From: a virus
Virus record (IMG/VR): IMGVR_UViG_3300026097_000015
Coordinates: 37,545-101,544 of that record
Length of the DNA stretch: 64,000 nt
Direction: 5' to 3' (one strand)
The first letter of the stretch is position 1, and every line of letters starts with the position of its first letter. A model generated the notes under the pieces. The model was not told the origin of the DNA. It searched no databases and saw only the letters and a program-made list of their open reading frames with translations. Shown piece after piece: positions 37,306 through 61,556 of this stretch. Position numbers and translations under genes: made by a program.

Positions 37306-38037
37306 ATGGCAATTAGCAAAAATATGGATTTTCCTAAAAGAAAGGCTAATTATGCAGACAAGGTTGCTCAGCAATCCATTACAAACACAGAAGCAGACTC
37401 TGGCAACTTTTTGCCAGTACCAGGTCCCCAGGGGCCAATGGGTCCAAAAGGAGACCGTGGACCAAAGGGTGAGCCAGGACAAAAAGGTCCAAAAGGTGAC
37501 AGCGGTGCTCCAGGTAAAAACGGTAAAGATGGCAAAGACGCAGATGACTTTGCACCTGTTTACGGACAGAAACCAGGCTGGGCAAAATACGTAAACGCTG
37601 CTCCAGATGACATTAAGCTAGGTGCCTCTCAAGGTGAAGACGGCTGGGTAAGTTTTTATATTGACCAACTTGATAAAAAAGAGACAACTGAAGAGTTCTT
37701 GCCAGAAAATGCAAATAGTTTGTACGGCACAAGTATTCGTAAGATTAACTTGCGAGAACTCAAGGTCGGTAGCCAGATTAGAATTAGCTATAATTTTGAA
37801 ATAACAACATTTGCAAACAATACCGAGATTTGGGCAAGATCTTTTTTTAAACAAACTGATAAAGAAATTGTAAGCTTTGTCGCAAATCTTAAATATCAAC
37901 ACACATACGACCTAACAGTTACACAAGATATTTATCTTGAAAGTGAAAAAGATCGGGGCACAGGATTAGTACCCCAGCTTCGTTCAGACATGGACGCATA
38001 TGCAAATCTTAAATCTATTACAATTTCAATTGTGTAA
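37306..38037 (+). CDS. Collagen-repeat virion protein
   Basis: (Gly-X-Y)n stretch GPQGPMGPKGDRGPKGE... Confidence 0.85.
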   Translation: MAISKNMDFPKRKANYADKVAQQSITNTEADSGNFLPVPGPQGPMGPKGDRGPKGEPGQKGPKGDSGAPGKNGKDGKDADDFAPVYGQKPGWAKYVNAAPDDIKLGASQGEDGWVSFYIDQLDKKETTEEFLPENANSLYGTSIRKINLRELKVGSQIRISYNFEITTFANNTEIWARSFFKQTDKEIVSFVANLKYQHTYDLTVTQDIYLESEKDRGTGLVPQLRSDMDAYANLKSITISIV

Positions 38038-42398: not shown

Positions 42399-44054
42399 AT
42401 GGCAACAGTCAATAAAGACTTTAAGGTCAAGAATGGTCTAGTCGTTGAGGGTGCAAACGCATCTGTTAACGGATTTGACATTCTAACCAAAGCCACAGAT
42501 GACCAGAACTACATCATTGGATTGATTGGTGGTTCTGCTACATCTGCAAACACAGCTGACTCAGTTGTGCTTCGTGATGCAAATGGAGACTTTGCTGGTG
42601 GGACCATTACCGCAGAAACAGGCTTCACAGGAGACCTGACAGGAAACGTAACTGGTAACGTAACAGGAAACGTAACAGGCGACTTGACAGGTGATGTTAC
42701 AGGCAATGTAACAGGTAACCTAACAGGCAATGTAACTGGAAATGTGACTGGAGATGTTACAGGTGACGTAACAGGTAATCTAACTGGAAATCTTACAGGT
42801 GATGTTACAGGAGATGTAACTGGAACAGTTTCAGACATTTCTAATCACGACACAGGTGACCTGGCAGAAGGCACTAACCTTTACTTTACAGATCAAAGGG
42901 CTCTAGACGCTACTAACGCCGCTTATGACGCAGCTGGTTCAGCATCTACCGCAGAATCAAACGCTAACACCTACACCGATAACCTAATTGGTGACGGTAC
43001 AGTAGATGGAACAGCTGGAAACACTGTTAAGGATCGTATTGACACAGCAGTAGCTAATCTGGTTGACACAGCACCAACTGCTCTTGATACCCTTAACGAA
43101 TTAGCCGCAGCTCTAGGCGATGACGCAGACTTTGCCACTACCGTGTCTAACAACATTGGAACTAAGGTAAGTAAGGATGGCGATACCATGACTGGTTTGT
43201 TGACCCTGTCAGGTGCTCCATCAGATGATCTACACGCTGCAACTAAAAAGTATGTAGATGATGCAGTTTCGGGAGGAGTTGGAAGCATTGATTCAGATGA
43301 TGTGCCAGAAGGTACCAATAATCTTTACTTCACTGACGAGCGTGCACAGGATGCTCTAGCAGCCGCCATTGCAGCAGGTACACACGAGAACATCGTAATT
43401 ACCTATGATGACAATGCAAACTCAATTAGCTTTGTTGCTGAAAACGGTGTAGACGACTCAACCACTACAGATCTTGCTGAAGGAACAAACTTGTACTTCA
43501 CAGACGAAAGAGCACAGGATGCTATTGCAGCTGCTATTTCAGCGGGTACACAGACAAACATTGTAATTACATACAATGACGCAACCAACTCATTTGACTT
43601 TGTTGCTGAAAATGGTGTAGATGATTCAGACACTGACGATCTAACCGAAGGTAGCTCAAACCTATACTTCACAGACGCTCGTGCAGTATCTGCTCTTGAG
43701 GCTGTAGTTCCTAACTTTACCGAGGTAGACATCAATTCAGTTGCAACTCAGGTTGCTGCTACAGTTAACGTACCTACCGCTGGTATTGCAAACGCACACC
43801 AATTCACTCGTGCAGACTACGATTCAGCAGAGTACATCGTAAAGGTTGATGATGGAACACACACAGAGGTTTCGAAGATTCTTTTGACTCTTGACTCTTC
43901 AGACAACATCTCAATCACAGAGTACGGTATCGTAGGAACCAACGGTACATTAGGTACAGTTTCAGCTACTACAGATGGAACTAATGTAACTCTACAGGTA
44001 ACAACTGCAAACAATAACTCAGATGTTACTGTTGCAGGAACACTAATTAAATAA
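42399..44054 (+). CDS. Long fibre protein with G(N/D)(V/L)T tetrapeptide repeats and EGTNLYFTD repeats
   Basis: 12-bp tandem repeat at ~42630-42825; LDTLNELAAAL; internal ~55-aa duplication. Confidence 0.85.
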   Translation: MATVNKDFKVKNGLVVEGANASVNGFDILTKATDDQNYIIGLIGGSATSANTADSVVLRDANGDFAGGTITAETGFTGDLTGNVTGNVTGNVTGDLTGDVTGNVTGNLTGNVTGNVTGDVTGDVTGNLTGNLTGDVTGDVTGTVSDISNHDTGDLAEGTNLYFTDQRALDATNAAYDAAGSASTAESNANTYTDNLIGDGTVDGTAGNTVKDRIDTAVANLVDTAPTALDTLNELAAALGDDADFATTVSNNIGTKVSKDGDTMTGLLTLSGAPSDDLHAATKKYVDDAVSGGVGSIDSDDVPEGTNNLYFTDERAQDALAAAIAAGTHENIVITYDDNANSISFVAENGVDDSTTTDLAEGTNLYFTDERAQDAIAAAISAGTQTNIVITYNDATNSFDFVAENGVDDSDTDDLTEGSSNLYFTDARAVSALEAVVPNFTEVDINSVATQVAATVNVPTAGIANAHQFTRADYDSAEYIVKVDDGTHTEVSKILLTLDSSDNISITEYGIVGTNGTLGTVSATTDGTNVTLQVTTANNNSDVTVAGTLIK

Positions 44055-45637: not shown

Positions 45638-46072
45638 ATGGCAACCAGAATGCAACAAAGAAGGGGCACAGCCTCTCAATGGAATAACGCAGACCCAGTA
45701 TTAGCGGCTGGCGAAATTGGATTTGAAATTGATACCGTCAAATTTAAGATTGGTGACGGAATCAATGAGTGGTCATTGCTTGACTACTTCTCAGCTACCC
45801 CAGATTTGACAGGGTATGCTACCGAAACATACGTAGACAACGCTATAAATGGAGTGCTAGACAGTGCACCCGCCGCTCTTGATACCCTCAATGAGCTCGC
45901 TGCAGCACTGGGGGATGATGCAGATTTTAGCACTACTATTACTAATAGTATTGCAGCAAAAGCACCTCTAGATTCCCCCTCATTTACTGGAACAGTAAAT
46001 TTCTCAAATTCAACGGTACAGGGTATTGAAATCCCACAACCAATTCACCCATTCGTAATGTTAGGAGCATAA
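45638..46072 (+). CDS. Fibre protein with Mtd/hyaluronidase-type N-terminal domain
   Basis: MQQRRGTASQW...VLAAGEIGFE.DT.KFKIGDG; LDTLNELAAAL. Confidence 0.8.
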   Translation: MATRMQQRRGTASQWNNADPVLAAGEIGFEIDTVKFKIGDGINEWSLLDYFSATPDLTGYATETYVDNAINGVLDSAPAALDTLNELAAALGDDADFSTTITNSIAAKAPLDSPSFTGTVNFSNSTVQGIEIPQPIHPFVMLGA

Positions 46073-46073
46073 G

Positions 46074-47309
46074 GTGGCAGATAGTTATAAAATTTTAGCA
46101 CAAGATGTTGCATTGGGTTCAGCAGCTCAAAATAGATACCTCGCATTTGTGGATCAGAGCTCTTTCCCAGTCGTTGCGTACTCAACAAATTTGATTGAAT
46201 GGTCTATTTCATCTCTACCAGTATCCGCACACTGGGACAATACACTTTTTGTAGAAGGAAATTTTTACGCAATAGGAATTCAGGGTAGTGGTCAAGGGCC
46301 TGCCTCAATATATTCAACAGACGGAGTCAATTGGACACAGGGCAATATACCTTCTTCATCAATAGGGCAAGGTCTTGCGTATGGAAGCGGAAAGTTTGTC
46401 ACAACAGGTTATTACAATACTAACTTTGCATACTCTACAGATTTTATTACTTGGACTACAGGCACCATGCCATCGGTCACAGGCTCCCCAAACTGGCCAA
46501 CGATAATCTATGGTGAGGATAAGTTTGTTGCTATAAAAGAAAGTCAGACTACCTATTCCACGGATGGAATAAGCTGGAGCTCTAATGCAAGCTTGCCAGC
46601 CAGCATGCTTGACGTTGTGTATGGAGCAAATAATTTTGTTGCAGTGGGATCCACAAATGCAGCTTATTCTACTGACGGAATAAGCTGGTCTAACTCAACA
46701 ATTCCCGTAAGTGTAAGTTCCGTTACTTATGGTAATGAAAGGTTTGTTGCGATTGGTTCGGGCACCCTAGCCGCCTACTCCACAGACGGAGCAACCTGGG
46801 TCTCATCCTCTATACCAAATCAATCATGGGAAGACATTTCTTTTGGAGATGGCAAGTTTTTTGCAGTTTCTGAGCCCAATTTTAATTTAGAATACGCTGT
46901 TATTGCCTACTCAACTGACGGAATTACATGGACAGAGCAAGCCTTGCCAGCAGAAGAAAGCTTCTTTTCCAATTACTATTATCGAAATGTGGCTTATGGA
47001 AATCCAGTACTGCCTACTGCACAAACACAATATACAGTTCCATCATCAAATCAAGCCGCAATTTCTGCAATCTCTGTTATTAATAATGATACTACTTCCC
47101 ACACTTATTCTGTAGGGATTGTAAAGGCGTCAGATACTGGAACGCTTGGCATCTCAAATACTCAAACAATTATCCCAACTAAAACAATAGCTGCTGGAGA
47201 AATTGATGAAATTGTCGGGGGTATTACATTATCAGCAGGAGATCAAATTAGAACAAATTCTGATTCTACTGACTTAACAGTACACATTTACGGAACGGAG
47301 ATATCATAA
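46074..47309 (+). CDS. Seven-bladed Asp-box/BNR beta-propeller inside a beta-sandwich carrier
   Basis: Seven YSTDG.xW repeats. Confidence 0.8.
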   Translation: MADSYKILAQDVALGSAAQNRYLAFVDQSSFPVVAYSTNLIEWSISSLPVSAHWDNTLFVEGNFYAIGIQGSGQGPASIYSTDGVNWTQGNIPSSSIGQGLAYGSGKFVTTGYYNTNFAYSTDFITWTTGTMPSVTGSPNWPTIIYGEDKFVAIKESQTTYSTDGISWSSNASLPASMLDVVYGANNFVAVGSTNAAYSTDGISWSNSTIPVSVSSVTYGNERFVAIGSGTLAAYSTDGATWVSSSIPNQSWEDISFGDGKFFAVSEPNFNLEYAVIAYSTDGITWTEQALPAEESFFSNYYYRNVAYGNPVLPTAQTQYTVPSSNQAAISAISVINNDTTSHTYSVGIVKASDTGTLGISNTQTIIPTKTIAAGEIDEIVGGITLSAGDQIRTNSDSTDLTVHIYGTEIS

Positions 47310-48559
47310 TGAGTTTAGATTATAAGAATTTGGGGCAAAGTGGTGTTGCTGGTGAAGGATTAGAGAATTATTATGTATCAGTAGCTGGAGGCCCTGGAGG
47401 CAACTCTACTACTACCGCCGCCTACTCCACAGACGGAATCACCTGGGCAGAGTCAACCATGCCAGTAAGTGCAAGGTGGACATCAGTAACCTATGGAGAA
47501 GGCAAATTTATAGCAGCACCCTACTACTCCGATAACGCATTTTACTCTACCGATGGCATAACCTGGACACAAGCTACTATAGGGTTAAACTTTTACCTGT
47601 CAGCTGTAGGCTATGGAGACGGCAAGTTTGTAGCCCTAAGCCCAGCAGCCTCAACCAACGCCGCCTACTCCACCGATGGCATCACTTGGATAGCCACCAC
47701 TAAGCCAGTCTCGTACTCTAATGAGTGGTACTCTATAACATATGGAAACGGAAAGTTTTTGTCAGTAAATCAGTCGAATATTAATGGGCAGCAGCTGGGT
47801 TTCACCCTTATTTCTACAGACGGAATAACATGGACAGAATCTTCAACTAATCTACCATCAGATTTTGTATGGATAGGCGAAGCAGCTTATGGAGATGGTA
47901 AGTTCGTAACAGTAGCTACCTTTTCCTCCACTGCCGCCTACTCCACAGACGGAATTACCTGGACACAGTCCACCATGCCTACAGGTTCAGGATGGTCCTC
48001 AGTAACCTACGGAGATGGAAAATTTGTAGCAGTGGCAGGCTCCTACACCACTGCCGCCTACTCAACCGACGGTATTACATGGACACAGTCCACCCTCCCA
48101 GCAAGCGACCCATGGAAATCAGTAACCTATGGAGGCGATAAATTTGTAACAGTAGCTGGAGGAAGCGGCACCTCCACCGCCGCCGCTTACTCAACCGACG
48201 GTATTACATGGACACAGTCCACCCTCCCAGCAACTGAAAATTGGTTTTCAGTAATCCACGGAGAAAACCTTTTTAAATTATCCGAAAACAATCAATACAC
48301 AGTACCATCTACAAAAGAAGCTATCATTTCATCTATTTACATAGCAAATAATGAAACAACTTCTCAGACCTATTCTGTGGCGGTAGTTCCAAATGGTGAA
48401 ACACTATCAAACATTCACTACATTAGAAAAGATATTTCAATTGATGGAAATGACTTCCATACTATTGGTACTAAGATTACCCTTGCAGAAGGGGATCAGA
48501 TAATTACCGAGGGTACATCACTAAATGTATCTGTCAACATCTTTGGATTGGAGAAATAG
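47309..48559 (+). CDS. Seven-bladed Asp-box/BNR beta-propeller inside a beta-sandwich carrier
   Basis: Seven STDGITW repeats. Confidence 0.8.
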   Translation: MSLDYKNLGQSGVAGEGLENYYVSVAGGPGGNSTTTAAYSTDGITWAESTMPVSARWTSVTYGEGKFIAAPYYSDNAFYSTDGITWTQATIGLNFYLSAVGYGDGKFVALSPAASTNAAYSTDGITWIATTKPVSYSNEWYSITYGNGKFLSVNQSNINGQQLGFTLISTDGITWTESSTNLPSDFVWIGEAAYGDGKFVTVATFSSTAAYSTDGITWTQSTMPTGSGWSSVTYGDGKFVAVAGSYTTAAYSTDGITWTQSTLPASDPWKSVTYGGDKFVTVAGGSGTSTAAAYSTDGITWTQSTLPATENWFSVIHGENLFKLSENNQYTVPSTKEAIISSIYIANNETTSQTYSVAVVPNGETLSNIHYIRKDISIDGNDFHTIGTKITLAEGDQIITEGTSLNVSVNIFGLEK

Positions 48560-49545
48560 TGGGTTTCAAAACTTATAAGAACGGTGAAGAGGTAGGTATT
48601 TTTGATACCGCTGATATTTCCAATGTAAGTGTAGATGACTTAGAGGTTAGGGATGTTGTTAGTAATATTTTTGTTGCAGTAGCTAATGCCTCCACCGACG
48701 CCGCTTACTCCACCGACGGAATCACCTGGACAGCCATCACCATGCCAACATCTCCAGATTGGTCCTCAGTAACCTATGGAAATGGAAAGTTTGTAGCAGT
48801 ATCTACTAACGATTTTGACATCGCCGCTTACTCCACCGACGGAATCACCTGGACACAGACCACTATGCCTACAAGCAACAACTGGCAATCAGTGACCTAC
48901 GGAGATGGAAAGTTTGTGGCAGTAGTCAACTCTTACCCTTCCTCCACCGCCGCTTACTCCACCGACGGAATTACCTGGGCACAAGCTACTTTGCCAACAA
49001 GCAATGGCTGGTACTCAGTAACCTATGGAGATGGCAAGTTTGTAGCAATAGCCACCTACGGCACCGCCGCCGCCTACTCAACCGATGGCATTACCTGGAC
49101 ACAGTCTACCCTCCCAGCAAATGGATTCTGGTATTCAGTAACCCACGGAGACAATAAGTTTGTAGCAGTAGCCGAAGGCACCGCCGCTTACTCCACAGAC
49201 GGAATAACTTGGACGGGGACTACAACTACAGCAGGGGTCTGGGATTCGATAACTCACGGAAATGATAGATTTTTAGCAGTTGGGTACAACTCTTCTGCCG
49301 CATCATACTCTGATGACGGCATTACTTGGACTCAGGCAACATTGCCAGCCTCTAGAACATGGCGAGTAACCTTTGGTAATGGAAGGTATATAGCAGTTTC
49401 AGACTCTTTTTCCAGCTCCACCACCGCAGCCTACTCCACAGACGGCATTACCTGGACACAGTCCACCTTGCCATCAGGTGCAAATTGGACATCAGTAACC
49501 CACGGAGCACCATTATTAACTAAATCAATCAGAAATCTGTTTTAA
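48559..49545 (+). CDS. Seven-bladed Asp-box/BNR beta-propeller protein
   Basis: Seven YSxDGITW repeats; FKTYKNG...TKSIRNLF ends. Confidence 0.8.
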   Translation: MGFKTYKNGEEVGIFDTADISNVSVDDLEVRDVVSNIFVAVANASTDAAYSTDGITWTAITMPTSPDWSSVTYGNGKFVAVSTNDFDIAAYSTDGITWTQTTMPTSNNWQSVTYGDGKFVAVVNSYPSSTAAYSTDGITWAQATLPTSNGWYSVTYGDGKFVAIATYGTAAAYSTDGITWTQSTLPANGFWYSVTHGDNKFVAVAEGTAAYSTDGITWTGTTTTAGVWDSITHGNDRFLAVGYNSSAASYSDDGITWTQATLPASRTWRVTFGNGRYIAVSDSFSSSTTAAYSTDGITWTQSTLPSGANWTSVTHGAPLLTKSIRNLF

Positions 49546-49556
49546 CTGGGGGAATA

Positions 49557-50564
49557 TTGGTATTTAGAACTTATAAAAACGGAACAAGGCTAGCAAACTT
49601 TGATTCTTTAGAAATTGAAGATAAGCTAAGCTTAGATGATTTGCAGGTTAATGATGTTGCTACTGATATTTTTGTTGCAGTAGCCGATGCCTCTTCCACC
49701 GCCGCCTACTCCACAGATGGTATCACCTGGACACAGTCCACCCTGCCAGCAAGTACTGCCTGGAACTCAGTAACTTATGGCGACGGAAAATTTGTAGCAG
49801 TAGCGGGAGACAACTATTCCTCCGACACAGCAGCCTACTCAACCGACGCCATAACCTGGACACAGTCCACCCTCCCAGCAAGCGATAGCTTGTTCAGACT
49901 AACTTATGGAGACGGTAAATTTGTAGCAATAGCTAATGCCTCCACCGACGCCGCCTACTCCACAGACGGCATTACCTGGACACAGTCTACTCTCCCAAAT
50001 AACGGGATCTGGCATTCAGTAACTTATGGCGACGGAAAATTTGTAGCAGTAGCTGATTATCCCGCCATTGCAGCCTACTCAACAGACGGAATCACCTGGA
50101 CACAGTCCACCTTGCCAAGTTTTGGTTTTACAGCAGTAACTTATGGAGACGGTAAATTTGCAGCATTGACTACTTTTGGTTCTACCAACACCGCAGCCTA
50201 CTCCACCGACGGTATTACTTGGACACAAACTACTCTGGCAGGGGAGGTGTGGGCTTCAGTAACCTATGGAGACGGTAAGTTTGTAGCAGTATCGGGATTA
50301 AGTAGCACCTCGTCCACCGCCGCCTACTCCACAGATGGTATCACCTGGACACAAACCACTCTACCAGCAAGTGAGAGCTGGTACTCAGTAATCTATGGAA
50401 CCGACAGGTTTGTAGCAGTAGCCAGTAACGCACTTTACGCCAACGCCGCCTACTCTACCGATGGCATCACTTGGACACAGTCTACTTCGACCCCAAGTGC
50501 TGCCTGGCGATCAGTAACTTACGGGTCATCACTATTCACTAAATCAATCAGAGAACTATTCTAA
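49557..50564 (+). CDS. Seven-bladed Asp-box/BNR beta-propeller protein
   Basis: Seven YSTDxITW repeats; FRTYKNG...TKSIRELF ends. Confidence 0.8.
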   Translation: MVFRTYKNGTRLANFDSLEIEDKLSLDDLQVNDVATDIFVAVADASSTAAYSTDGITWTQSTLPASTAWNSVTYGDGKFVAVAGDNYSSDTAAYSTDAITWTQSTLPASDSLFRLTYGDGKFVAIANASTDAAYSTDGITWTQSTLPNNGIWHSVTYGDGKFVAVADYPAIAAYSTDGITWTQSTLPSFGFTAVTYGDGKFAALTTFGSTNTAAYSTDGITWTQTTLAGEVWASVTYGDGKFVAVSGLSSTSSTAAYSTDGITWTQTTLPASESWYSVIYGTDRFVAVASNALYANAAYSTDGITWTQSTSTPSAAWRSVTYGSSLFTKSIRELF

Positions 50565-50593: not shown

Positions 50594-50920
50594 ATGTATA
50601 CATACACAGTAAATGATGCAAATACAGTAGAAGTATTTGCTGAAGGTCAGGAAGCACCAATGCTTCGTCAGCCACACTATCCAAACCAGGACGCTTTTGA
50701 CACAAAGGCAGAAGCAGAAGAATGGGCACAGCTATTCATTGCATCAATGGAAGATGAAGCTGCACCATATGCCCCAATTGGCAAGGGTATTGCTGGTGAG
50801 CCAAAGCCAACTAAAGAAGATATGCTTGCAAGGCTAAAAGAGCAAGCAGAGCAGTACGGAGATGACGTACCAGCTCGTCTATCAGAAAGAATTGCTGAAC
50901 TAGAAGCAGAGCTTTCTTAA
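50594..50920 (+). CDS. Hypothetical protein, possibly fibre assembly
   Basis: Own promoter and AGGAG SD; QPHYPN...AEAEEWA. Confidence 0.65.
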   Translation: MYTYTVNDANTVEVFAEGQEAPMLRQPHYPNQDAFDTKAEAEEWAQLFIASMEDEAAPYAPIGKGIAGEPKPTKEDMLARLKEQAEQYGDDVPARLSERIAELEAELS

Positions 50921-50998
50921 TTTAATTAAATCAGTTTACGGAGTCACTAGACAGTGACTCCGTTTTCTGTTATAATAAATGTAAAAGATTGGCAGGGT

Positions 50999-51658
50999 AT
51001 GGAACATTACGATGTATTAATAGCTACCCCTGGGCACAGCCTAGAGGCACAGTATGTACAAAGTTTATTAGAAACAACAGCAGAATTAAATAATCAAGGT
51101 ATATCTTATAAATGGCTAAACGCCTATTCTTCTCTAGTTCATAATGCAAGAGAAATGACAGCTACTGGCGGTATTGATAGAAATCTTAATCCCCTAGATG
51201 CAGGACCCCTAGGAGATAAAGTAACATACAATAAAATATTTTGGATTGATTCAGATATTTCCTGGACCCCAGAAGATTTTATAAAGCTGTATGAATCAGA
51301 ATATGATGTCGTAACAGGTGCATACCTTTTGGCTGATGGAACTACTACATCAGTTCATGAATGGGGTGTTGTTGGCGGTATGCCAAAAGAAAGAATCATG
51401 TCCTTAGAAGAGCCTCTTAAAATTCAAAGTATGGGATTTGGATTTGCCGCCATAAAAGCAGGGGTATTTGAAAAGCTAGAAAGACCATGGTTTGGTCACT
51501 ATACACAACAAATACAATTGCCAAATGGCAAAATTATGGACACATATCTAGGAGAAGACATCTCTTGGTGTGTCAATGCATATAAAGCGGGTATTGAAAT
51601 TTATCTAGACCCAACAGTATTAGTAGGACATATGAAGAAGGTAAAAATCGAATGGTAG
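50999..51658 (+). CDS. Glycosyltransferase, GT-A fold
   Basis: LIATPG, SLVHNARE, FWIDSDI, GFGF..IK.GVFE, GEDISWC, DPTV.VGH.K. Confidence 0.85.
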   Translation: MEHYDVLIATPGHSLEAQYVQSLLETTAELNNQGISYKWLNAYSSLVHNAREMTATGGIDRNLNPLDAGPLGDKVTYNKIFWIDSDISWTPEDFIKLYESEYDVVTGAYLLADGTTTSVHEWGVVGGMPKERIMSLEEPLKIQSMGFGFAAIKAGVFEKLERPWFGHYTQQIQLPNGKIMDTYLGEDISWCVNAYKAGIEIYLDPTVLVGHMKKVKIEW

Positions 51659-52473
51659 ACAAAAAATATTATTTTATGGGAGGATTGCCAAGATCTGGTA
51701 GCACTCTTTTGGCATCAATCTTAAATCAAAATCCAGATATTTATGTATCTGCTCAATCACCTCTGCCCAATATGTTGGGGGCAGCGTATAATCAATATCA
51801 AAGTAAAGAAAATCTAGACTCAAGTAGATTTGATGATATCTATAATGTAGTAGATAACGTTATACCGCTTTTCTATGAGAAGCACCCAGAGAAATACATT
51901 ATTGACAAAAACTTTTCTTGGCTAGAGCCACACCCATATGTAATTCTAGAGAATCATCTTAAAAATGATATTCGTGTTATCTGTCCAGTTCGTAATGTGA
52001 TGGATATTCTAGCTTCTTGGAATAGGCTTTGTGAGGCAGACCCAAATAATGAATATGACAAAATTATCATAAAGGGAGATAAGAGTAAAAGAGCAATTGC
52101 TGATAAAAGGGCAGACTTTTTTATGAATATGAATAATGAAGAAATGACGGGTATTCTAAACGGCATTGAAAATCTTAAAAGAATTCTATACCCACAATTT
52201 AAAGACAACATCATGCTTGTAGATTATGATGACTTAATGTCAGACACCCCAGGTACAATCAAAAAGGTATACGACTTTTTAGGCATTGAACACTTTGACC
52301 ACACCTTTGAAAACATGAAAACAACTCACGAATATAAAGATATCTGGGGTGTAAAAGGTCACCACGAAATTAAGCCCACTATTCAAAAAGAAGAATATGA
52401 CCTAGAGTCAATCTTCTCTAAGCAAACAATTGAAAAGTATTCAGGTCTAGAATTTTGGAAGGGTATTAAATGA
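51652..52473 (+). CDS. Sulfotransferase
   Basis: 5'-PSB loop GLPRSGSTLL..ILNQNP; 3'-PB VRN..DILAS; YDDL...P. Confidence 0.9.
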   Translation: MVDKKYYFMGGLPRSGSTLLASILNQNPDIYVSAQSPLPNMLGAAYNQYQSKENLDSSRFDDIYNVVDNVIPLFYEKHPEKYIIDKNFSWLEPHPYVILENHLKNDIRVICPVRNVMDILASWNRLCEADPNNEYDKIIIKGDKSKRAIADKRADFFMNMNNEEMTGILNGIENLKRILYPQFKDNIMLVDYDDLMSDTPGTIKKVYDFLGIEHFDHTFENMKTTHEYKDIWGVKGHHEIKPTIQKEEYDLESIFSKQTIEKYSGLEFWKGIK

Positions 52474-53219
52474 TTATCCAAATCATAGGACTACCAGGTA
52501 CAGGTAAGACTGCCTTAGCAAAAGAGCTATGCAGAAGAACAGATGCTATTCATTTGAATGCAGATGATGTGCGTGCTGATTTAAATAAAGACCTTGGATT
52601 TTCTGTAGAGGACAGGGTAGAGCAGGCTAGAAGAATGGGGGCATTATCTAGACTTCTATCTAATCAAGGGAAGCTTGTGGTTGTAGACTTTGTAAATCCA
52701 ACACAAGAAACCAGGGAAGCCTTTGGTAATGCAGATAGAATTATCTGGGTTAACAGAATTGAAAGCGGTAGGTTTGAAGATACAAACAATCTATGGGAAG
52801 ACCCAAAGCGTCACGACCTTCAAATCTTTGCTGGTTTAACTATTGAAGAAGAAGCAATGGAAGTCTTAAAAGCTTTTAACATTCATGATTGGACTGAGCC
52901 AACTACCTTGCAATTAGGCAGGTATCAGCCATGGCATGAGGGTCATAGTGCACTGTATGATGCAGGACTAGAAAGAACTTCACAGGTTTTAGTAGGTGTA
53001 CGTAATACCGAGGGCACATCAGAAAAGGACCCAATGGGATATTCAGAAGTAGAGTCTTACATTCGTAAAGATAGGCCAAATGCTCTAATTATGAAACTAC
53101 CAAATATCACAAATATTATCTATGGACGTGATGTGGGATATAAGATTGAAAAGGTAGAACTATCTCAAGAACTACAATCTATTTCAGCTACACAAAAGCG
53201 TAAAGAGATGGGTATTTAG
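52470..53219 (+). CDS. cysC: APS kinase-like domain fused to HxGH nucleotidyltransferase domain
   Basis: GLPGTGKT, NADDVR..LNKDLGFS.EDRVEQARR; C-terminal GRYQPWHEGH and ISATQKR. Confidence 0.75.
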   Translation: MIIQIIGLPGTGKTALAKELCRRTDAIHLNADDVRADLNKDLGFSVEDRVEQARRMGALSRLLSNQGKLVVVDFVNPTQETREAFGNADRIIWVNRIESGRFEDTNNLWEDPKRHDLQIFAGLTIEEEAMEVLKAFNIHDWTEPTTLQLGRYQPWHEGHSALYDAGLERTSQVLVGVRNTEGTSEKDPMGYSEVESYIRKDRPNALIMKLPNITNIIYGRDVGYKIEKVELSQELQSISATQKRKEMGI

Positions 53220-53425
53220 TGGAAGCGACAAAATCTAGAAGTGCTGCAAAAGCCATTACCTGGAGAATAACAGGAACCCTAGATACCTTTTTGATTGCTT
53301 GGCTAATTACCAGAGAACCATTAATTGCAAGTAGTATTGCTGTTTTAGAAGTAATAACTAAAACAGTTTTGTATTATTTGCACGAAAGAGGATGGAATAG
53401 AATTTCCTGGGGTAGGGAAAAATAA
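53219..53425 (+). CDS. DUF2061-like small membrane protein
   Basis: RS.AKAITWR..GT.DT...K.VLYYLHERGW. Confidence 0.85.
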   Translation: MEATKSRSAAKAITWRITGTLDTFLIAWLITREPLIASSIAVLEVITKTVLYYLHERGWNRISWGREK

Positions 53426-53439
53426 AAAAGGAGAGACAA

Positions 53440-53826
53440 ATGAGCAACCCAAACATTACAATTACAGGTAGACTAGCTGCAGATCCAGAATATAGAGATT
53501 TTGGCTCAAACAATGTTGCTAAGTTTAGAGTTATAACATCAGACCGTCGTAGAAAAGACGATGGTACATGGGAAGATATCAATACATCTGGCTGGAAAAT
53601 TTCTGCATGGAATAATCTAGCAACATCTTGTAAAAATATTTTGCAAAAGGGACAAGAGGTTATCGTAACTGGGGTAATCAATGAAGATTCCTGGGAAGAC
53701 AAAGAGGGTAACTCTAGAAAATCGGTAGAAGTAAAGGCATCTATGATTGCTGTATCTACATATGCAATTCAAAAATCAGCTTCAAGAAGTCAAGACACCA
53801 CCTTTGACCCAGAAGAAGTTTTTTAA
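53440..53826 (+). CDS. ssb: Single-stranded DNA-binding protein
   Basis: ITGRL.ADPE, W..LA....L.KGQ.V.V.G, WEDKEG..R. Confidence 0.9.
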   Translation: MSNPNITITGRLAADPEYRDFGSNNVAKFRVITSDRRRKDDGTWEDINTSGWKISAWNNLATSCKNILQKGQEVIVTGVINEDSWEDKEGNSRKSVEVKASMIAVSTYAIQKSASRSQDTTFDPEEVF

Positions 53827-53861
53827 AGCACTTATTATGCTAAAATAGACATGGAGAAACT

Positions 53862-56800
53862 ATGTCTAACCCTTCTAATCTATATGCAGAAAAAGTTTTT
53901 GCTGAACATCCTCTCGCCCTTTGGGCACTAGATGATCAGTCGGATTATATTTCCCTAATTTCTGAAGCCCAAAGAGATTACACAACCTGGTCTATTTCTG
54001 GCGGAACTATCTCCGAAGAAGTGCAGCCAGTCGATGCTCCCTTTACAGATAGTTTTGTGGCAAAGGCGTTGGGAGACGTAGAGCCATCTCCAGGGTATGG
54101 GCAGATAGTCTTAACTAGCCCAAACATAATAAATATTAACGAATTAAACTCAACCTATGAAACATTCTCGATAGGTGCATACTTTTATTCCGATAATGCT
54201 CTAATATCTTCTTTGCAAGTAGGTTATCAATATTATGACCCTGAGCTAGAGCAGTATGTGCTTATAGATGATACTGTGGAAAACAGGGCAGCTGGAATTG
54301 ACCCAACAATGAAGATTTCTAATATTTCTGTTGGAAACGCCTGGGTCTTTATTTCTGAAACGTTTACCGCACCAGTAGAATCTGGAAGCATACAACTTGT
54401 ACTCAAGATAGACTATTTGGGCGGAGCCTCGTCGTCAGAAGAAAATAGGTTCTACATTAACGGTGTCAGCTTTGGGCAATGGTCAGAGGAGTTTTCGGCC
54501 ACATCTTTAGGACAAGAGCCTATAGACTTGCCGTCAGATATTGCATTGCCAGAATCAAAGGTGGTAAAAGCCGATGCGTATGGACTTCAAGAAAATCCAG
54601 GCTACTACTTCGTAAAAGATAATTTCTTTATGGCAAGGAACGCAGGTATACCTCTTGTTTATGGTGCCCCTAGCGTAACAACCATATTTGACAATGACGA
54701 CCTTCCATCACTTATTATACCTGGGCTAGGCATGCTAAACGAGGTGGGTAGATTTAAAGAATACACCCTAGAGATGTGGCTAAGGGTAAACCCAGAAACA
54801 ACAGAGTATAGGCGTATTTTCGGCCCTATCGCATCTGAGGATGGTCTGTATGTAAACGGCCCCTTCTTAACATTAAAAGTGGGGGATAACATCGCATCTC
54901 ATTATGTGGGGGAATGGTTTAGACCAATGCTTTTGCATATTGAAGTAATCCAAGATTCTGTAAGTATGCTCGTAAATGGAGAGCAGGTATTTTCTACAGA
55001 AATTGATACAGCAAGTCTTGACTTACCCTCTGAGTTTAACGGCGAAGGCAAGAATCAGGACTGGCTAGGTTTCTACGGACATAGCGACGTATATCCAATA
55101 GACATTGAGTCTATAGCAATCTACCCATATCAAGTGCCCTCTATACTAGCAAAGAGAAGATGGGTGTTTGGACAAGGTGTAGAATTCCCAGAAAACATCA
55201 ACTCTTCTTATAGTGGAACATCTGTTTTGATAGACTATCCATTTGCTAATTATGCAAACAACTACAACTATCCAGATCTGGGTAGATGGGAACAGGGCGT
55301 GGTAGAAAACTTAGATACAGATGGCGATAGACTATCATCTCCAGAATATGATTTACCAGAAATTGTTTTTGACAATAAGATATCAGAAGAATGGTTTTCT
55401 GATATTGAAGCAGTTCAAGATGAAAATGATGCCTTCATAACATTATTTCCAAATAATGGCTGGGACAATACAAACGGATACCTATTTCTTAATAATTTTA
55501 ACTTTTTGCTTAATGGAACTAGAGCATTTTACTCTACTTTTAAAGAAGAAAGTGTTGCTGAATGGGAAAGTCAAAATCCAGAATCAGGAGAATATCCCTA
55601 TAACCTACAAACATTAATATATATACAGGATAAGCTCACAAATAACTTTTTTGAAACAAGGATAAATATATCCACAAATAGCATTGAGTATTGCATTGGG
55701 TATGATGGAGAGATCGAGGTGATTCATACAACCCCCAGACAAACTGCTGAAGAAGATTTTGTTACAGGTTTAGATGTAAGAAAAGCTTCAGATTTTTTTG
55801 GAGGAAGGCTGGCCGCTCTTTTTGGAAAAGTATCTTCACTTTCTATGTATCTTGGAGGTAGGCCAGATTTTACTCAAACATTTAGAGGTAAGATATATAA
55901 TTTGGGGCTTGCAACTGAGAAAAACATTCAGACAATTCTAAATATTTTTGACGAGTCTGGAATTCCTCTAAACTCCGAAGATGTTTTTGAGCTGTTCCAG
56001 CAACAAGATACTGTTGAGTATGACGGAGGAGATAGCTATTTCGGGAATAACCCTTCATTCTTTGATGTCATTATTGACGGGGGAGACCCACAAACCTTAA
56101 CAGCCTCTACCCCAGTCTCAAAGATCTCAGCTCATCTAGCAAGTTATTTGTTTATGCCAAGATTCCACTTTGGAAAATATAAATTTGATGTCAATATACA
56201 GTCTTCTTGGGAAGATTATGTGCCACTCTCTTATTTTGGGAAGTATGTTGTAGATGAGCAAGGGTTAAGCTATTATGATCTTGACTTTATCCAATTCAAC
56301 GTAGACTATCCATTTTTTGAGATAGTTTCTGGAGACAATTATGATACTTCTAATAATAATGTGCGAACATATATCTCTTTTCAATACCTTGCAAATGGAG
56401 CGAATGCAACTCTAGGTAGCCTTAAAAATTTTTATGGTGCCCCTGAAAGCGGAATTATACAGCCAGGACCAGATTGGATGAACGCCAGATACGAGGTTGT
56501 TGACGGAACAGTTCTATACCTTCCCAAGGGCGTATCCTTTGATGATCTAGCACTTGTAGTTTACTTAGAAATGGGTGTAGAGGGTGCGTCTAACACGCCA
56601 ATATCAATTAGATCATTAAAACTTAGCTCTCAGTCTCTAAGCACATCTTCTCCAACACCAATAGGAAGCAGGTTCGGAGTTCCCATCTACCCCTTTAAAA
56701 AATCGGGAGTATACTTTAATTACAAGTCTCAAAACCCATACGCTATTTATAAAGATAGCACTCCATACTTGTATTTAACTCGGAATAGTGGAATTCAGGT

Positions 56801-57518
56801 CAAGGGTGATTTTGATGAAAATATTAGTCGTGGATTATCAATTCCAGTAAATCAGGGTCTTTCTGGAGATTATAGGGTGATTGCTGCACAAATGTCTATG
56901 AGATATGATAAGGATCAGTTTCCATCAGAAAAAACCGAATTATTTGAAATACAAAGTAATAACCAGTATATTAAATTTTATATTGAGCCAGTTGGGTCAA
57001 GCAGAAAAAGAGCAAAAATAATTGCCTTTAATGCAACTACAAACTCTCTAGAAAGAGGAATATCCTTTTACTGGAACGGAAAACTTGTTCGTAATCCAGT
57101 ATTAACCGCAAAGGAGTGGGGAATGCTAGGTATAGGATTTGCTAAAACTCTTAACTTTGATAATTTTGCAGGAGCAATTAGACTAACTGGGCCAGTAGTG
57201 TTTAATAATATATCTCACTACCAATCAACAAATTTGCAAGAAGTTCAAAATATTGCCACTAGATCATGGCTAAGAGTAAAATATCTAGGAGTTTCAGAAT
57301 TAGACTGGGGATTCTGGGAATCAGCTTATACATGGGAGGATGTCTTAGTCGTTGCATCTACGAGCTACTATGGCGTAGATCCTGGAGATATTTATGAAAC
57401 ATATACAGGCACAAACAAGTTTATAATTGATGATTCTAGAAAATTTAGACTAAGCGAGTACGAATATACATATAGAAACGACATTGTTGTACAGAGCCGT
57501 ACCATAACACCAGTTTGA
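53862..57518 (+). CDS. Large virion structural protein (1218 aa) with LamG-like segments
   Basis: HPLALWALDD, YTLEMW, LVNGE; acidic and beta-rich; upstream of portal. Confidence 0.7.
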   Translation: MSNPSNLYAEKVFAEHPLALWALDDQSDYISLISEAQRDYTTWSISGGTISEEVQPVDAPFTDSFVAKALGDVEPSPGYGQIVLTSPNIININELNSTYETFSIGAYFYSDNALISSLQVGYQYYDPELEQYVLIDDTVENRAAGIDPTMKISNISVGNAWVFISETFTAPVESGSIQLVLKIDYLGGASSSEENRFYINGVSFGQWSEEFSATSLGQEPIDLPSDIALPESKVVKADAYGLQENPGYYFVKDNFFMARNAGIPLVYGAPSVTTIFDNDDLPSLIIPGLGMLNEVGRFKEYTLEMWLRVNPETTEYRRIFGPIASEDGLYVNGPFLTLKVGDNIASHYVGEWFRPMLLHIEVIQDSVSMLVNGEQVFSTEIDTASLDLPSEFNGEGKNQDWLGFYGHSDVYPIDIESIAIYPYQVPSILAKRRWVFGQGVEFPENINSSYSGTSVLIDYPFANYANNYNYPDLGRWEQGVVENLDTDGDRLSSPEYDLPEIVFDNKISEEWFSDIEAVQDENDAFITLFPNNGWDNTNGYLFLNNFNFLLNGTRAFYSTFKEESVAEWESQNPESGEYPYNLQTLIYIQDKLTNNFFETRINISTNSIEYCIGYDGEIEVIHTTPRQTAEEDFVTGLDVRKASDFFGGRLAALFGKVSSLSMYLGGRPDFTQTFRGKIYNLGLATEKNIQTILNIFDESGIPLNSEDVFELFQQQDTVEYDGGDSYFGNNPSFFDVIIDGGDPQTLTASTPVSKISAHLASYLFMPRFHFGKYKFDVNIQSSWEDYVPLSYFGKYVVDEQGLSYYDLDFIQFNVDYPFFEIVSGDNYDTSNNNVRTYISFQYLANGANATLGSLKNFYGAPESGIIQPGPDWMNARYEVVDGTVLYLPKGVSFDDLALVVYLEMGVEGASNTPISIRSLKLSSQSLSTSSPTPIGSRFGVPIYPFKKSGVYFNYKSQNPYAIYKDSTPYLYLTRNSGIQVKGDFDENISRGLSIPVNQGLSGDYRVIAAQMSMRYDKDQFPSEKTELFEIQSNNQYIKFYIEPVGSSRKRAKIIAFNATTNSLERGISFYWNGKLVRNPVLTAKEWGMLGIGFAKTLNFDNFAGAIRLTGPVVFNNISHYQSTNLQEVQNIATRSWLRVKYLGVSELDWGFWESAYTWEDVLVVASTSYYGVDPGDIYETYTGTNKFIIDDSRKFRLSEYEYTYRNDIVVQSRTITPV

Positions 57519-57536: not shown

Positions 57537-57926
57537 ATGAGTAACAAATCCAAAAAACTAAAAGGTCAAAGAATGCCTGGACAGGTTGGCGATGCCACCA
57601 TAACTATGATGGATAAGCAGTACACATGGGGTGTATATGTTTGGATTAAGTCAAATGGCAAACCATTTACAGACGGGAATCAGAACGTACTGAACATCCC
57701 CTCGCACAGAGGTGACCAAGTTCAGATTGAGAAACTCCGCAAAGAGGCAGAGTATTTAGGAGAAGGCGACGGTAGGGCAGAATTCTATGCTGGTGTCGCA
57801 AGAGTAAGTGATGAAGAATACTCAGAGCAGGTAGACAGAATGAAAAATGGAGAATTGCTCCTTAACGACCTCGGTGCAGTAATTGATGCAAAGAAAACTT
57901 TTGACAAATATGGGAGCGATGAGTAA
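57537..57926 (+). CDS. Hypothetical protein preceding portal
   Basis: ATG 7 nt after TGGTATAAT. Confidence 0.75.
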   Translation: MSNKSKKLKGQRMPGQVGDATITMMDKQYTWGVYVWIKSNGKPFTDGNQNVLNIPSHRGDQVQIEKLRKEAEYLGEGDGRAEFYAGVARVSDEEYSEQVDRMKNGELLLNDLGAVIDAKKTFDKYGSDE

Positions 57927-59551
57927 TGTCAGATAATCAAAGAATATTCGTAAAGACGGATGACCTGCTGCCAGAAGATACAACGTTTAAACAGCAAGAT
58001 CCATTTAATAAAAGCTGGGACAACCTTAAAGTTTTGTCTGGCCTAGATTCAAATTTTAAACGTAGAACAACTCGCATGATTAAAAATTATAACGAGTCAA
58101 CCACTACAGCGGCTGGCGTAGACACCAATAATAGACAGTACCTAGAAAGTGCTTCTGCAGTAAGCACTGGTCGTGACGGAACACATTCTAAAGAAATTAA
58201 TCCAGGAGATGTATATCGTAATGGGTATGGCTTGTTTGACGTAATCACCCCTCCTTGGAATCTTTACGAGTTGGCTAATTTTTACGACACCTCGTTTGCA
58301 AATCACGCAGCCATTGACGCAAAGGTAGAAAACATTGTAGGTCTTGGTTATGACTTTGAAACAGCTCAGAGCACAATGCTTAGGCTGGAAACGGCAATGA
58401 ATGCAGATCAACAAGACAGGGCTCGTAATAGGATTGAAAGAGCAAGAATTGAGCTTAGGTCCTGGTTAGAAAGTCTTAATGACGACGACTCTTTTACAAA
58501 TACAATGATGAAGTTTTATACTGATGTGCAGGCAACTGGAAACGGATACCTTGAAATAGGAAGAACTACTAGCGGAGAAATTGGGTATGTAGGACACATT
58601 CCTTCAACCACAATGCGTGTCAGAAGAAAACGAGATGGTTATGTACAGATTATAGGAAACAAGGTAGTTTACTTCCGTAACTTTGGGGCAAAGAATCAGA
58701 ACCCAGTTACAACTGACCCCAGACCAAACGAAATTATTCATTTTAAAGAGTATTCTCCTCTGAACACTTTTTATGGTATTCCAGACATTATGTCAGCCAT
58801 TACCTCTTTGCAGGGAGACCAGCTGGCCTCTCAATACAACATTGACTACTTTGGAAATAAAGCAGTTCCAAGGTATGTCGTGACGGTAAAGGGTGCAAAG
58901 CTTACAGAAGAGGCTGAGGACAAGCTATTTAGGTTCTTGCAGACTAGCCTTAAAGGACAGTCACACAGAACTCTCTACATTCCTCTGCCTGGAGATACTG
59001 AAAATAATAAAGTTGAATTTAAGATGGAGCCTATTGAAAGCGGCATTCAAGAGGCATCTTTTAAAGAGTATCGTAAGCAGAACCGTGATGATATTCTTAT
59101 TGCACACCAGGTACCCTTGTCAAAGATCGGTGGTGGAGACTCTTCCAATATTGCCTCTGCACTTGCTCAAGACCGTACCTTTAAAGAGCAGGTAGCTAGA
59201 CCATCTCAAAAGAATCTAGAAAAGATGATCAACAAGATCGTTACAGAAAAAACCGATATCTTGGAATTTAAGTTTAAAGAGCTAACACTTACAGATGAGA
59301 TAGCACAGTCTCAGATACTTGAGCGTTATGTTAAGAATCAAATTATGGTTCCTAATGAAGCAAGACAAGCTCTTGGCCTGCCTCAAAGAAATGATGGAGA
59401 TACTCCTTTTACAATGGGTGCTCGACAGGCAGCAGACTCCAGGGCAAATGGAAACAGGCAGCGAGATGCCGAAAGAAATAATTCTCAGTCAGATGGGTCC
59501 GCAACTTTGAGTGGTAGGAATCCACAAGGAGAGGGCAGGTCTTCAGAGTAA
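57926..59551 (+). CDS. Portal protein (PBSX/HK97-like)
   Basis: TGNGYLE, EIIHFK, YGIP, YF.N.AVP, ILIAHQVP, PNEAR..LGLP. Confidence 0.93.
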   Translation: MSDNQRIFVKTDDLLPEDTTFKQQDPFNKSWDNLKVLSGLDSNFKRRTTRMIKNYNESTTTAAGVDTNNRQYLESASAVSTGRDGTHSKEINPGDVYRNGYGLFDVITPPWNLYELANFYDTSFANHAAIDAKVENIVGLGYDFETAQSTMLRLETAMNADQQDRARNRIERARIELRSWLESLNDDDSFTNTMMKFYTDVQATGNGYLEIGRTTSGEIGYVGHIPSTTMRVRRKRDGYVQIIGNKVVYFRNFGAKNQNPVTTDPRPNEIIHFKEYSPLNTFYGIPDIMSAITSLQGDQLASQYNIDYFGNKAVPRYVVTVKGAKLTEEAEDKLFRFLQTSLKGQSHRTLYIPLPGDTENNKVEFKMEPIESGIQEASFKEYRKQNRDDILIAHQVPLSKIGGGDSSNIASALAQDRTFKEQVARPSQKNLEKMINKIVTEKTDILEFKFKELTLTDEIAQSQILERYVKNQIMVPNEARQALGLPQRNDGDTPFTMGARQAADSRANGNRQRDAERNNSQSDGSATLSGRNPQGEGRSSE

Positions 59552-60179: not shown

Positions 60180-61556
60180 ATGAATATTTCTAAGGCTGCT
60201 CTGACCACCGAAGGCTCTTCGATCCACTTCGCTTTGCCTATCTCAAAGGTTGACAAAGAGCGAAGGATTGTTTCTGGATTCGCAACAACAGATGCACTAG
60301 ATAAGCAAGGGGACGTGGTTACCCAAGAAGCTTCCATGCAAGCATTTTCTAAATTTAACAAAAACATCAGAGAAATGCATCAGCCAGTAGCAGTTGGCAA
60401 AATGATAGATTTTAAAGAAGATAAGTATTTTGATGCAGAAACAAAAAAGTTTTATAGCGGAGTTTACGTATCAGCCTACATATCAAAAGGTGCCCAGAAC
60501 ACCTGGGAAAAGGTTTTAGATGGAACTCTTTCAGGTTTTTCCATCGGGGGTAGGATGAATAAGTGGGATGATGCCTACGATGAGAAGTCAGATGCTCAGG
60601 TTCGTATTATTAAGGACTACGATCTCGTAGAGTTGTCTTTGGTAGACAACCCTGCAAATCAGTTTGCTAGCATTATGTCTATAGAAAAAAATGCAGACGG
60701 TCAAGATGTCATCACAGGCGATGTAGCAGAAACCACACTAGAAAATGTTTTCTGGGATAAAGATTCAGGCATCGTAATTCTTTCAGAGGAAAGCTCTGCA
60801 GAAAGCCCAGTAAGTGGCAAGCAGATGGAAAATATAGGTTTCGTTGAAAAACTAGATGACGAAAAGACAGAAATGATAAAATTCTTAGTTGATAGTGCTA
60901 AGGGCATTGACACTAAGATTAACAAGGAGGTAAGTCCTATGACTGAAAACACAGAAGCAGTAGTTGAAGAGACCGCTGTAGAAAAATCAGAAGAGGTCGC
61001 TCCAGAGGCAGATACCACCATCGAAGCCAATACCGAAAAGGCCGAGCACATGGACGAAGAGAAAAAGTCTATGAACGAGGATGAGGAAAAAATGGAGAAC
61101 GGTGAAGAGGAAGAAGAGATGAAGGGCTACAAAGACAAGGCAAAGGCAGAAAAAGCTGACGCCGACATCGATGAGCCAGTCGCTGAGAAGTCCGATGAGC
61201 CAGAGGTATCTAAGTCAGATGAGGTTGCTGCACAGGTAGCAGATATTAAAGACAGCCTCACCACAGCCTTTAGCGATCTTTCAGTTGTTGTTAAATCCCT
61301 TAATGAGGAGATTGCAGAGCTGAAGAAGTCACTTGGAGACGCAACTAATAATTTGACAGAGCAGCTAGAAACTGTTAAGTCAGATGTTGCAGAAACTAAG
61401 AACGAGTTTGGAAAGAGGGTTGATGCTGTAGAGGCAGACACCGCTTTCCGTAAATCTGGCGATCTTGGCGAGATCGTTCAGGAAGCTCAGATAGAAAAAT
61501 CTGAGCAATCCCTATGGGGCGGTCGTTTCCTCAAAACTGCCGACTTATTTAAGTAA
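60180..61556 (+). CDS. Prohead protease fused to acidic scaffolding domain
   Basis: KVDKERRIVSGFA..D.QGD, IREMH, GFSIGG, ELSLVDNPAN; E/K-rich coiled coil. Confidence 0.9.
   Translation: MNISKAALTTEGSSIHFALPISKVDKERRIVSGFATTDALDKQGDVVTQEASMQAFSKFNKNIREMHQPVAVGKMIDFKEDKYFDAETKKFYSGVYVSAYISKGAQNTWEKVLDGTLSGFSIGGRMNKWDDAYDEKSDAQVRIIKDYDLVELSLVDNPANQFASIMSIEKNADGQDVITGDVAETTLENVFWDKDSGIVILSEESSAESPVSGKQMENIGFVEKLDDEKTEMIKFLVDSAKGIDTKINKEVSPMTENTEAVVEETAVEKSEEVAPEADTTIEANTEKAEHMDEEKKSMNEDEEKMENGEEEEEMKGYKDKAKAEKADADIDEPVAEKSDEPEVSKSDEVAAQVADIKDSLTTAFSDLSVVVKSLNEEIAELKKSLGDATNNLTEQLETVKSDVAETKNEFGKRVDAVEADTAFRKSGDLGEIVQEAQIEKSEQSLWGGRFLKTADLFK

Follow-up and report, generated by a model that had tools for sequence, protein, structure and literature searches.

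The 64,000-nucleotide stretch of viral DNA analysed here (the window) covers positions 37,545 to 101,544 of IMG/VR virus record IMGVR_UViG_3300026097_000015, which is 101.5 kb long and 93% complete. Between positions 50999 and 53425 it holds four genes, which encode a GT-A-like protein, a sulfotransferase (ST), a 249-aa fusion of an APS-kinase-like domain to an HxGH nucleotidyltransferase (NT) domain (the fusion is called KNT, 52470-53219) and a small DUF2061 protein. The reading favoured here, with a probability of roughly 0.55, is that the locus carries a self-contained module for the supply of 3'-phosphoadenosine 5'-phosphosulfate (PAPS) that feeds a sulfation pathway of the phage. It rests on conserved gene context in phages and cells and draws nothing from a comparison of the HxGH domain with the known ATP sulfurylases (Sat). 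The first-pass annotation of this DNA had tentatively placed the genes in a modification pathway rather than in sulfur assimilation, and with the linkage to ST in phages and the lack of cysH this is the best-supported reading. Its idea that the fusion is a minimal PAPS synthase fared less evenly: the context (ST, DUF2061, cys operons) favours it, while the NT domain is not Sat-like in sequence and its fold does not discriminate.

In the proposed mechanism the four genes would form one late-region transcription unit and would provide the phage with a sulfation pathway of its own. The 105-residue NT domain would adenylylate sulfate, converting ATP and sulfate to adenosine 5'-phosphosulfate (APS). 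The fused kinase domain, for which homology is clear, would then phosphorylate the 3'-OH of APS to give PAPS, and this second step would pull the unfavourable first one as in metazoan PAPS synthase. DUF2061, a partner of sulfate activation in cells and phages, may work with KNT at the membrane, in anchoring or in sulfate entry. The PAPS would be spent by ST, and the GT-A-like enzyme, joined in a sibling phage by a GT-B enzyme, suggests that the acceptor may be a glycan carried by the virion or by the host envelope. KNT-DUF2061 would be a separable cassette that boosts or replaces the host PAPS supply, with no absolute need for it on the part of ST.

Phage cysC is among the sulfur auxiliary genes most often reported from marine and freshwater viromes, and the accessible text of the sources takes it to boost cysteine synthesis (PMC10914622; bioRxiv 10.1101/2021.01.05.425418). 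If KNT is a PAPS synthase wired to sulfotransferases, the ecology shifts: infection would involve the sulfation of surfaces or metabolites in place of sulfur assimilation. The adenylylation of sulfate is thermodynamically hard, and an enzyme of 105 residues would solve it in a new way. It would also account for the seeming lack of sulfate activation in some streamlined bacteria, and DUF2061, a family without a function, would gain a testable role. One purified protein of 249 residues would be enough to test the claims about KNT. No study of this module came up in literature searches on DUF2061, on phage sulfotransferases with PAPS and on a missing ATP sulfurylase. A wider proposal is more tentative and is held at somewhat less than even odds. 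In it, NT is a third, minimal class of ATP sulfurylase that arose from an ancestor like nicotinamide mononucleotide adenylyltransferase (NMNAT) and always stands beside or fused to a lid-less APS kinase, and DUF2061 is a membrane component of sulfate activation that has gone unrecognised. Together they would be the smallest known PAPS/APS-producing system, used by thousands of aquatic phages to sulfate glycans or other acceptors and serving as the sole sulfate-activation route in streamlined marine Alphaproteobacteria.

Gene context of KNT and DUF2061 in phages and cells

The KNT family is large, with 4711 matches. The protein from the window matches phrog_10255, named 'kinase', from end to end (3.9e-59), and cultured Xylella, Xanthomonas and Stenotrophomonas phages carry KNT at about 38% identity. 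Gene context was counted in 80 related KNT loci from IMG/VR (L004-L083). In 71 of them the next gene downstream of KNT is DUF2061, often with overlapping or near-abutting codons, and this makes it the tightest partner of KNT, which the first-pass annotation had overlooked. By iterative profile search, ST-like genes with a 5'-phosphosulfate-binding (PSB) loop are present in 33 of the 80 loci and lie no more than 1.6 kb from KNT in 25; in 19 loci the ST-like genes come from Pfam-supported clusters. cysH was found within 10 kb of KNT in none of the 80, and neither Sat nor CysD nor CysH was found in the genome of this phage. Co-occurrence across phages thus ties KNT to ST-like genes and never to cysH.

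Other neighbours recur as well. 2OG-Fe(II) oxygenases form the largest neighbour cluster of the KNT-DUF2061 islands (116 proteins in 47 loci, one from the window included), and tryptophan-halogenase homologues (18 loci), WhiB, Hsp20 and glycosyltransferases are also seen there. Some KNT loci have two tandem copies of DUF2061. In Ralstonia phage RSL1 (L244:4989-10348) a 231-aa APS-kinase-like gene, matched in a tblastn search with KNT over its first ~112 residues only, stands first in a row of genes that resemble those for glucosyltransferases and NDP-sugar pyrophosphorylases.

The phage DUF2061 protein matches PF09834 over positions 2-52 of a 52-position profile (E 5e-23, 81.7 bits against a cut-off of 23.1). 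For a comparison with cells, 80 bacterial DUF2061 loci were fetched. The genes upstream of 78 copies included sulfite reductase (21), APS kinase (8), a CysQ-like phosphatase (8), CysK-like proteins (7) and TusA (5); those downstream of 71 copies included PAPS_reduct (18), a siroheme-synthase domain (14) and APS kinase (5). A Mesorhizobium nod locus has nodH and nodPQ together with a DUF2061 gene (bioRxiv 10.1101/2022.04.26.489235). These cys-gene neighbours and the nodH/nodPQ locus argue that DUF2061 is a conserved member of the gene sets for sulfate activation and sulfate reduction. In one protein, P0473 (210 aa), a KNT-type kinase domain is fused to DUF2061. The publications found to name DUF2061 leave its function unstudied. 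Longer DUF2061 proteins are mostly tandem duplications of ~143 aa, and a rare fusion joins DUF2061 to a SurE nucleotidase domain (P0474, 175 aa, PF01975).

Three cellular settings resemble the phage locus. The first is a metagenome-assembled genome (MAG) of Ca. Nanopelagicaceae (L195:6057-12022) with genes for ST, CysD, CysN/CysC and DUF2061 and a GT2 gene on the opposite strand; its DUF2061 is 56% identical to that of the phage. The phage encodes WhiB and its host is therefore an actinobacterium, and Nanopelagicaceae belong to the same phylum, the Actinobacteria. The cluster corresponds to that of the phage, with CysD and CysNC where the phage has KNT, and it suggests that freshwater acI Actinobacteria have a cellular pathway to a sulfated glycan. 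CysD-CysN/CysC (NodP-NodQ), which activates sulfate in nod and sulfolipid clusters, feeds sulfotransferases, as proposed for KNT, and fills the same slot between ST and DUF2061. However, CysD belongs to the PP-loop enzymes and is driven by a GTPase, CysN; KNT has neither, and the sizes differ (~250 residues for KNT, ~900 for CysD-CysN/CysC).

The second setting is a small marine order of Alphaproteobacteria, sampled as 11 MAGs of 0.6-1.2 Mb (L198:1660-5994, L250-L259). Here the operon runs siroheme methylase, CysI, CysH, DUF2061, kinase and NT, with kinase and NT as separate proteins that are 42-46% identical to the corresponding halves of phage KNT. The order CysH-DUF2061-kinase-NT recurs in nine of ten loci although CysH diverges to 61% identity. 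NT was found in 10, the kinase in 10, CysH in 11, Sat in one and CysD in none of the 11 genomes. As far as the genes can be named, ATP sulfurylase would be the one step lacking in this operon and NT the one enzyme without an assigned role. The third setting is G179, a single contig of 2.06 Mb, in which a fused KNT gene stands directly before that of a Sulfotransfer_3 protein (E 1.7e-18), and neither Sat nor CysD was found in the contig. The comparative context supports the view that KNT behaves as a sulfate-activation unit and not as a lone cysC.

Domains of KNT and the enzymes encoded beside it

The N-terminal domain of KNT matches PF01583 (APS_kinase) over residues 2-85 with an E of 7e-17 and 62.3 bits against a cut-off of 21.1 (profile positions 4-92 of 152). 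With the equivalog model TIGR00455 it scores 62 bits, under the cut-off of 138.7, and it is therefore a family member and not an equivalog. An alignment to CysC of M. tuberculosis shows that the P-loop, the catalytic Asp of the DGD motif, the Arg/Phe/Arg of the LGFS..DR..RR segment and the FxxxD/NxxW/YExP elements are kept. The Arg/Phe/Arg and Phe positions of CysC are presumably those that bind APS. Within the KNT family G7, G12, K13 and R35 are invariant, and D32, F44 and R49 are conserved at 90% or more. The AF2 model of KNT has a pLDDT of 96. The best structural match of the kinase core is M. tuberculosis CysC (4rfv; Z 19.2, rmsd 1.6 Å, 127 residues, 32% identity), followed by the next family at Z 15.8. 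The N-terminal half of KNT can thus be taken as homologous to APS kinase, from which we infer APS-kinase activity.

Searches of the whole KNT model with Foldseek and VIA-align returned kinase matches only, and the C-terminal domain was therefore folded alone (pLDDT 96). This NT domain is about 105 residues long (residues 140-249) and has a sub-threshold match to PF01467 at 150-186. Its motifs GRYQPWHEGH, PNITN, YGRDVGY and ISATQKR are kept in the family down to ~31% identity, and over that range there is little or no variation at the positions of HxGH, GRD-x-G and ISxT..R. The correspondence of the invariant GRD-x-G (YGRDVGY) to the GRDHAG of Sat is uncertain. The metazoan PAPS synthases (PAPSS1/2) have the same order of domains, an APS kinase at the N-terminus and a sulfate-adenylylating domain at the C-terminus, with homologous kinases; the chemistry proposed for KNT is also the same. 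KNT differs from them in that the C-terminal part is ~105 residues and not a ~400-residue catalytic domain, lacks a PF01747 match and is nearer in sequence to NMNATs, and in that it has a shortened kinase lid and a membrane-protein partner in DUF2061.

ST passes the cut-offs of two Pfam families, PF00685 (6e-15, 55.8 bits, cut-off 22) and PF13469 (8e-15, 56.1 bits, cut-off 27), and has both the 5'-PSB loop and the 3'-phosphate-binding (3'-PB) motif of the PAPS-dependent sulfotransferases, of which it is a member. Homologues keep without exception R14, S15, G16 and T18 of the loop (GGLPRSGST) and R114 and S122 of the 3'-phosphate motif (RNVMDILAS), which was spotted by eye as R-x7-S. ST also matches tyrosylprotein sulfotransferases in the N-terminal loop region (E 2e-4). 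Homologues were found in only 10 of 50,697 reference phage records. A search of viral contigs with the single sequence gave two loci and was repeated with an alignment. The 12 close relatives of ST all belong to one phage group, and KNT-DUF2061 adjoins ST in seven of them.

The weakest call in the first-pass annotation is that of a glycosyltransferase for the first gene. No Pfam match was found for it (best E 0.22, to Glycos_transf_2), and phrog_1574, which it matches at 6.5e-53, has no function assigned there. On the other side are a match to phrog_34859, 'glycosyltransferase' (5e-6), and look-alike clusters in the Atlas that are partly named glycosyltransferase. The family is common in cyanomyoviruses. 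The first gene probably does encode a glycosyltransferase. In sibling L094, which has no KNT on its contig, a GT-B glycosyltransferase fills the slot so that the order is GT-A, ST, GT-B and SSB, and the succession GT-A, ST, GT-B fits a sulfated glycan. Judging by the flanking glycosyltransferases and by the structural genes around the unit, the sulfated acceptor may be a glycan of the virion or of the cell surface.

Points against a PAPS supply and other explanations

The observations that weigh against a PAPS-supply module concern the two domains of KNT and the genomes in which ST, KNT or their relatives occur. In the kinase domain Asn stands in place of the first Asp of the DGD motif (N-A-D) and the lid is shortened; the part after residue 85 contributes only 4 bits to the match and is ~25 residues shorter than in CysC. 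As for ST, the other five of the 12 sibling contigs have it without KNT-DUF2061 on the contig, these contigs being 15-41% complete, and three phages of 32-35 kb that are 92-100% complete have a distant ST (36-37% identical) and no APS kinase. The notion that ST requires KNT was rejected because of these cases, a point that the first-pass annotation had missed. KNT-DUF2061 is therefore regarded as a separable add-on, and ST can presumably run on host PAPS. In the Xylella, Xanthomonas and Stenotrophomonas phages KNT lies among early or nucleotide-metabolism genes, and in Xylella phage Sano it adjoins a NADAR-domain gene and is without DUF2061. The NADAR gene of Sano (L002:4957-5996; 6e-26) is directly upstream of KNT, and the gene that precedes it has a sub-threshold match to Sulfotransfer_4 (4e-4).

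The cellular evidence has its own counterweights. Sat and CysD were both absent from 10 of the 11 alphaproteobacterial MAGs, but the bacterial genomes on which the argument from absence draws are MAGs whose completeness is not established. Among 201 sampled Alphaproteobacteria, cut-off-level CysD occurs in 46 and Sat in 26, and about two thirds have neither. An argument from phylogenetic profiles, in which NT is present where Sat and CysD are absent, was tried and is weak at the level of the class, with only about a third of the 201 having cut-off-level CysD or Sat; the operon logic is therefore relied on instead. Since the CysH of the operon is an APS reductase of the Fe-S type, the operon has no strict need of the kinase. 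About 57 of the 201 genomes encode proteins of 267-300 aa whose match to the CysD model TIGR02039 is confined to positions 1-205, at ~210 bits and below its cut-off; they may be a distinct CysD- or CysH-like subfamily.

The first-pass annotation had linked the HxGH domain to the ATP sulfurylases, and at the level of sequence a likeness to Sat was not borne out. A profile of NT matched only NadM and archaeal NMNATs significantly in the PDB (E 1.2e-7 to 1e-5, over the first ~60 residues), with no ATP sulfurylase chain among the matches at E up to 10. The Pfam scan gave no PF01747 match for KNT, and hhalign of the NT profile with Sat gave a probability of 0.4, with just two near-identical Sat sequences used. 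The QxRNP that we take to be a Sat motif, and that is seen also in the Sat sequences compared, is replaced in NT by an NMNAT-type GRxQP (here GRYQ), with HxGH present. The comparison of the predicted structure with Sat and cytidylyltransferases gave a divided answer. Foldseek found no match for the NT model at E <= 0.001. In the structural alignments, archaeal NMNAT and PPAT (Z 9.8) and NadM (Z 9.5) come first; Thermus ATP sulfurylase (1v47) reaches Z 8.4 with an rmsd of 2.8 Å over 106 aligned residues at 19% identity, other Sats Z 5-6, and cytidylyltransferases and HldC Z 7-8. The predicted fold thus does not discriminate between these families or tell which second substrate is used. By sequence, NT is placed in the HxGH superfamily, closest to NMNATs, and would lack about a third of the NMNAT fold.

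These matches are also the basis of the alternative that fares best, namely that KNT is an APS kinase only, which needs host APS, and that its C-terminal domain is an adenylyltransferase for NMN, NaMN or another substrate, or a nucleotidyltransferase that does not act on sulfate, fused for an unrelated or regulatory reason. NT shares with archaeal and NadM-type enzymes the HxGH Rossmann core and the GRxQPxHxGH and ISxT..R motifs, and the NADAR gene beside KNT in Sano fits the same picture. Weak matches to the NCBIfam NMNAT models count on this side too, but all of them (16-22 bits) are under the cut-offs of 127-409. NT is also too short for a full-length NMNAT, at ~105 residues against ~170; it lacks ~60 residues of the fold, has invariant PNITN and YGRDVGY motifs of its own, and the PDB match covers its first ~60 residues only. 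The missing second half of the fold is presumably the part that binds NMN. Among the loci examined NT is never in an NAD context, apart from the NADAR neighbour in Sano, and the conserved contexts are all of sulfur metabolism (DUF2061, cys operons, sulfotransferases). A kinase alone would moreover be left without its substrate in the KNT genomes that have no Sat or CysD. This alternative is judged unlikely.

A further explanation, for which the chances are poor, is that of a classical auxiliary metabolic gene, a phage cysC that boosts assimilatory sulfate reduction of the host toward cysteine, with ST adjacent by accident. This is the interpretation published for phage cysC, as far as the accessible text of the sources goes (PMC10914622; bioRxiv 10.1101/2021.01.05.425418), and DUF2061 and the split kinase-NT pair do occur in true assimilatory operons of bacteria. 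The phage 'cysC' (PHROG 10255; Xylella phage Sano gp35) belongs to the same family as KNT, which is 38% identical to Sano gp35 over 99% of its length. In that accessible text it is treated as a single-function assimilatory gene, and the second domain, the DUF2061 partner and the linkage to ST go unmentioned. The viral loci speak against an assimilatory role: cysH is absent from all 80 neighbourhoods and from this phage, 25 of the 80 loci have an ST-like gene no more than 1.6 kb from KNT, and in the window KNT overlaps ST in a unit that lies within the structural block. Activation of a sugar or polyol, and not of sulfate, for the neighbouring glycosyltransferase (HldE or TagD logic) is very improbable: glycosyltransferases recur near KNT-type kinases, the RSL1 gene cluster is of this kind and cytidylyltransferases and HldC are among the fold matches of NT, but the kinase is far closer to APS kinases than to sugar kinases and keeps the CysC residues that we presume to bind APS, and the DUF2061 and cys-operon contexts are unconnected with sugar activation.

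Layout of the locus and neighbouring genes

The open reading frame (ORF) listing gives four plus-strand ORFs of which each overlaps the next, by 7, 4 and 1 nt (Table 1). The overlaps and common strand agree with the coupling claimed in the first-pass annotation and argue for translational coupling of the four genes. A terminator hairpin after the upstream 108-aa gene overlaps an extended -10-type promoter match, and with both just upstream the four genes look like a transcription unit of their own. The longest ORF of the first gene begins at GTG 50954 and has 234 aa; from ATG 50999 (residue 16) it has 219 aa. The ATG, which was also the start chosen in the first-pass annotation, is the likelier one because the GTG falls inside the hairpin.

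Table 1. The four-gene unit and the signals before it, in window coordinates
Feature	Position	Strand	Basis and remarks
Terminator-like hairpin	50938..50972	+	11-bp stem (50938-50963), 6 G-C pairs, T tract; closes upstream orf108 unit
Promoter-like site	50948..50976	+	TAGACA-17-TATAAT, upstream TG, 11/12 matches; consensus match only; would start the four-gene unit
GT-A-like protein, probable glycosyltransferase	50999..51658	+	phrog_1574, phrog_34859; DxD-like 'IDSDI' motif by eye; no Pfam match
PAPS-dependent sulfotransferase (ST)	51652..52473	+	273 aa; PF00685, PF13469; PSB loop GGLPRSGST; R-x7-S motif
KNT residues 1-139, APS-kinase-like P-loop domain with shortened lid	52470..52886	+	PF01583, CysC alignment, fold
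KNT residues 140-249, minimal HxGH nucleotidyltransferase (NT), proposed ATP sulfurylase	52887..53219	+	Motifs, fold, PDB profile, operon context
DUF2061, 68-aa two-helix predicted membrane protein	53219..53425	+	PF09834; start overlaps KNT stop by 1 nt

The unit lies within the virion module, as the first-pass annotation had it. Upstream are tail-fibre PHROG matches (42399-44054 and 45638-46072) and four propeller-like genes (46074-50564), and downstream are the genes for the portal (57926-59551), a protease (60180-61556) and a structural protein (61579-62694). When the region 50900-53900 was compared with reference phages at the nucleotide level, the sole match was 100 nt long.

Two further genes stand between the unit and the portal gene and its 132-aa neighbour. 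A protein of 1218 aa (53862-57518), with the 132-aa gene between it and the portal, had no match in Pfam or PHROG and is 29-40% identical to proteins of related phage contigs. Directly after DUF2061 and still within the structural block is an SSB gene (53440-53826; PF00436, 5.7e-21), which occupies the same place in the sibling phages L093 and L094.

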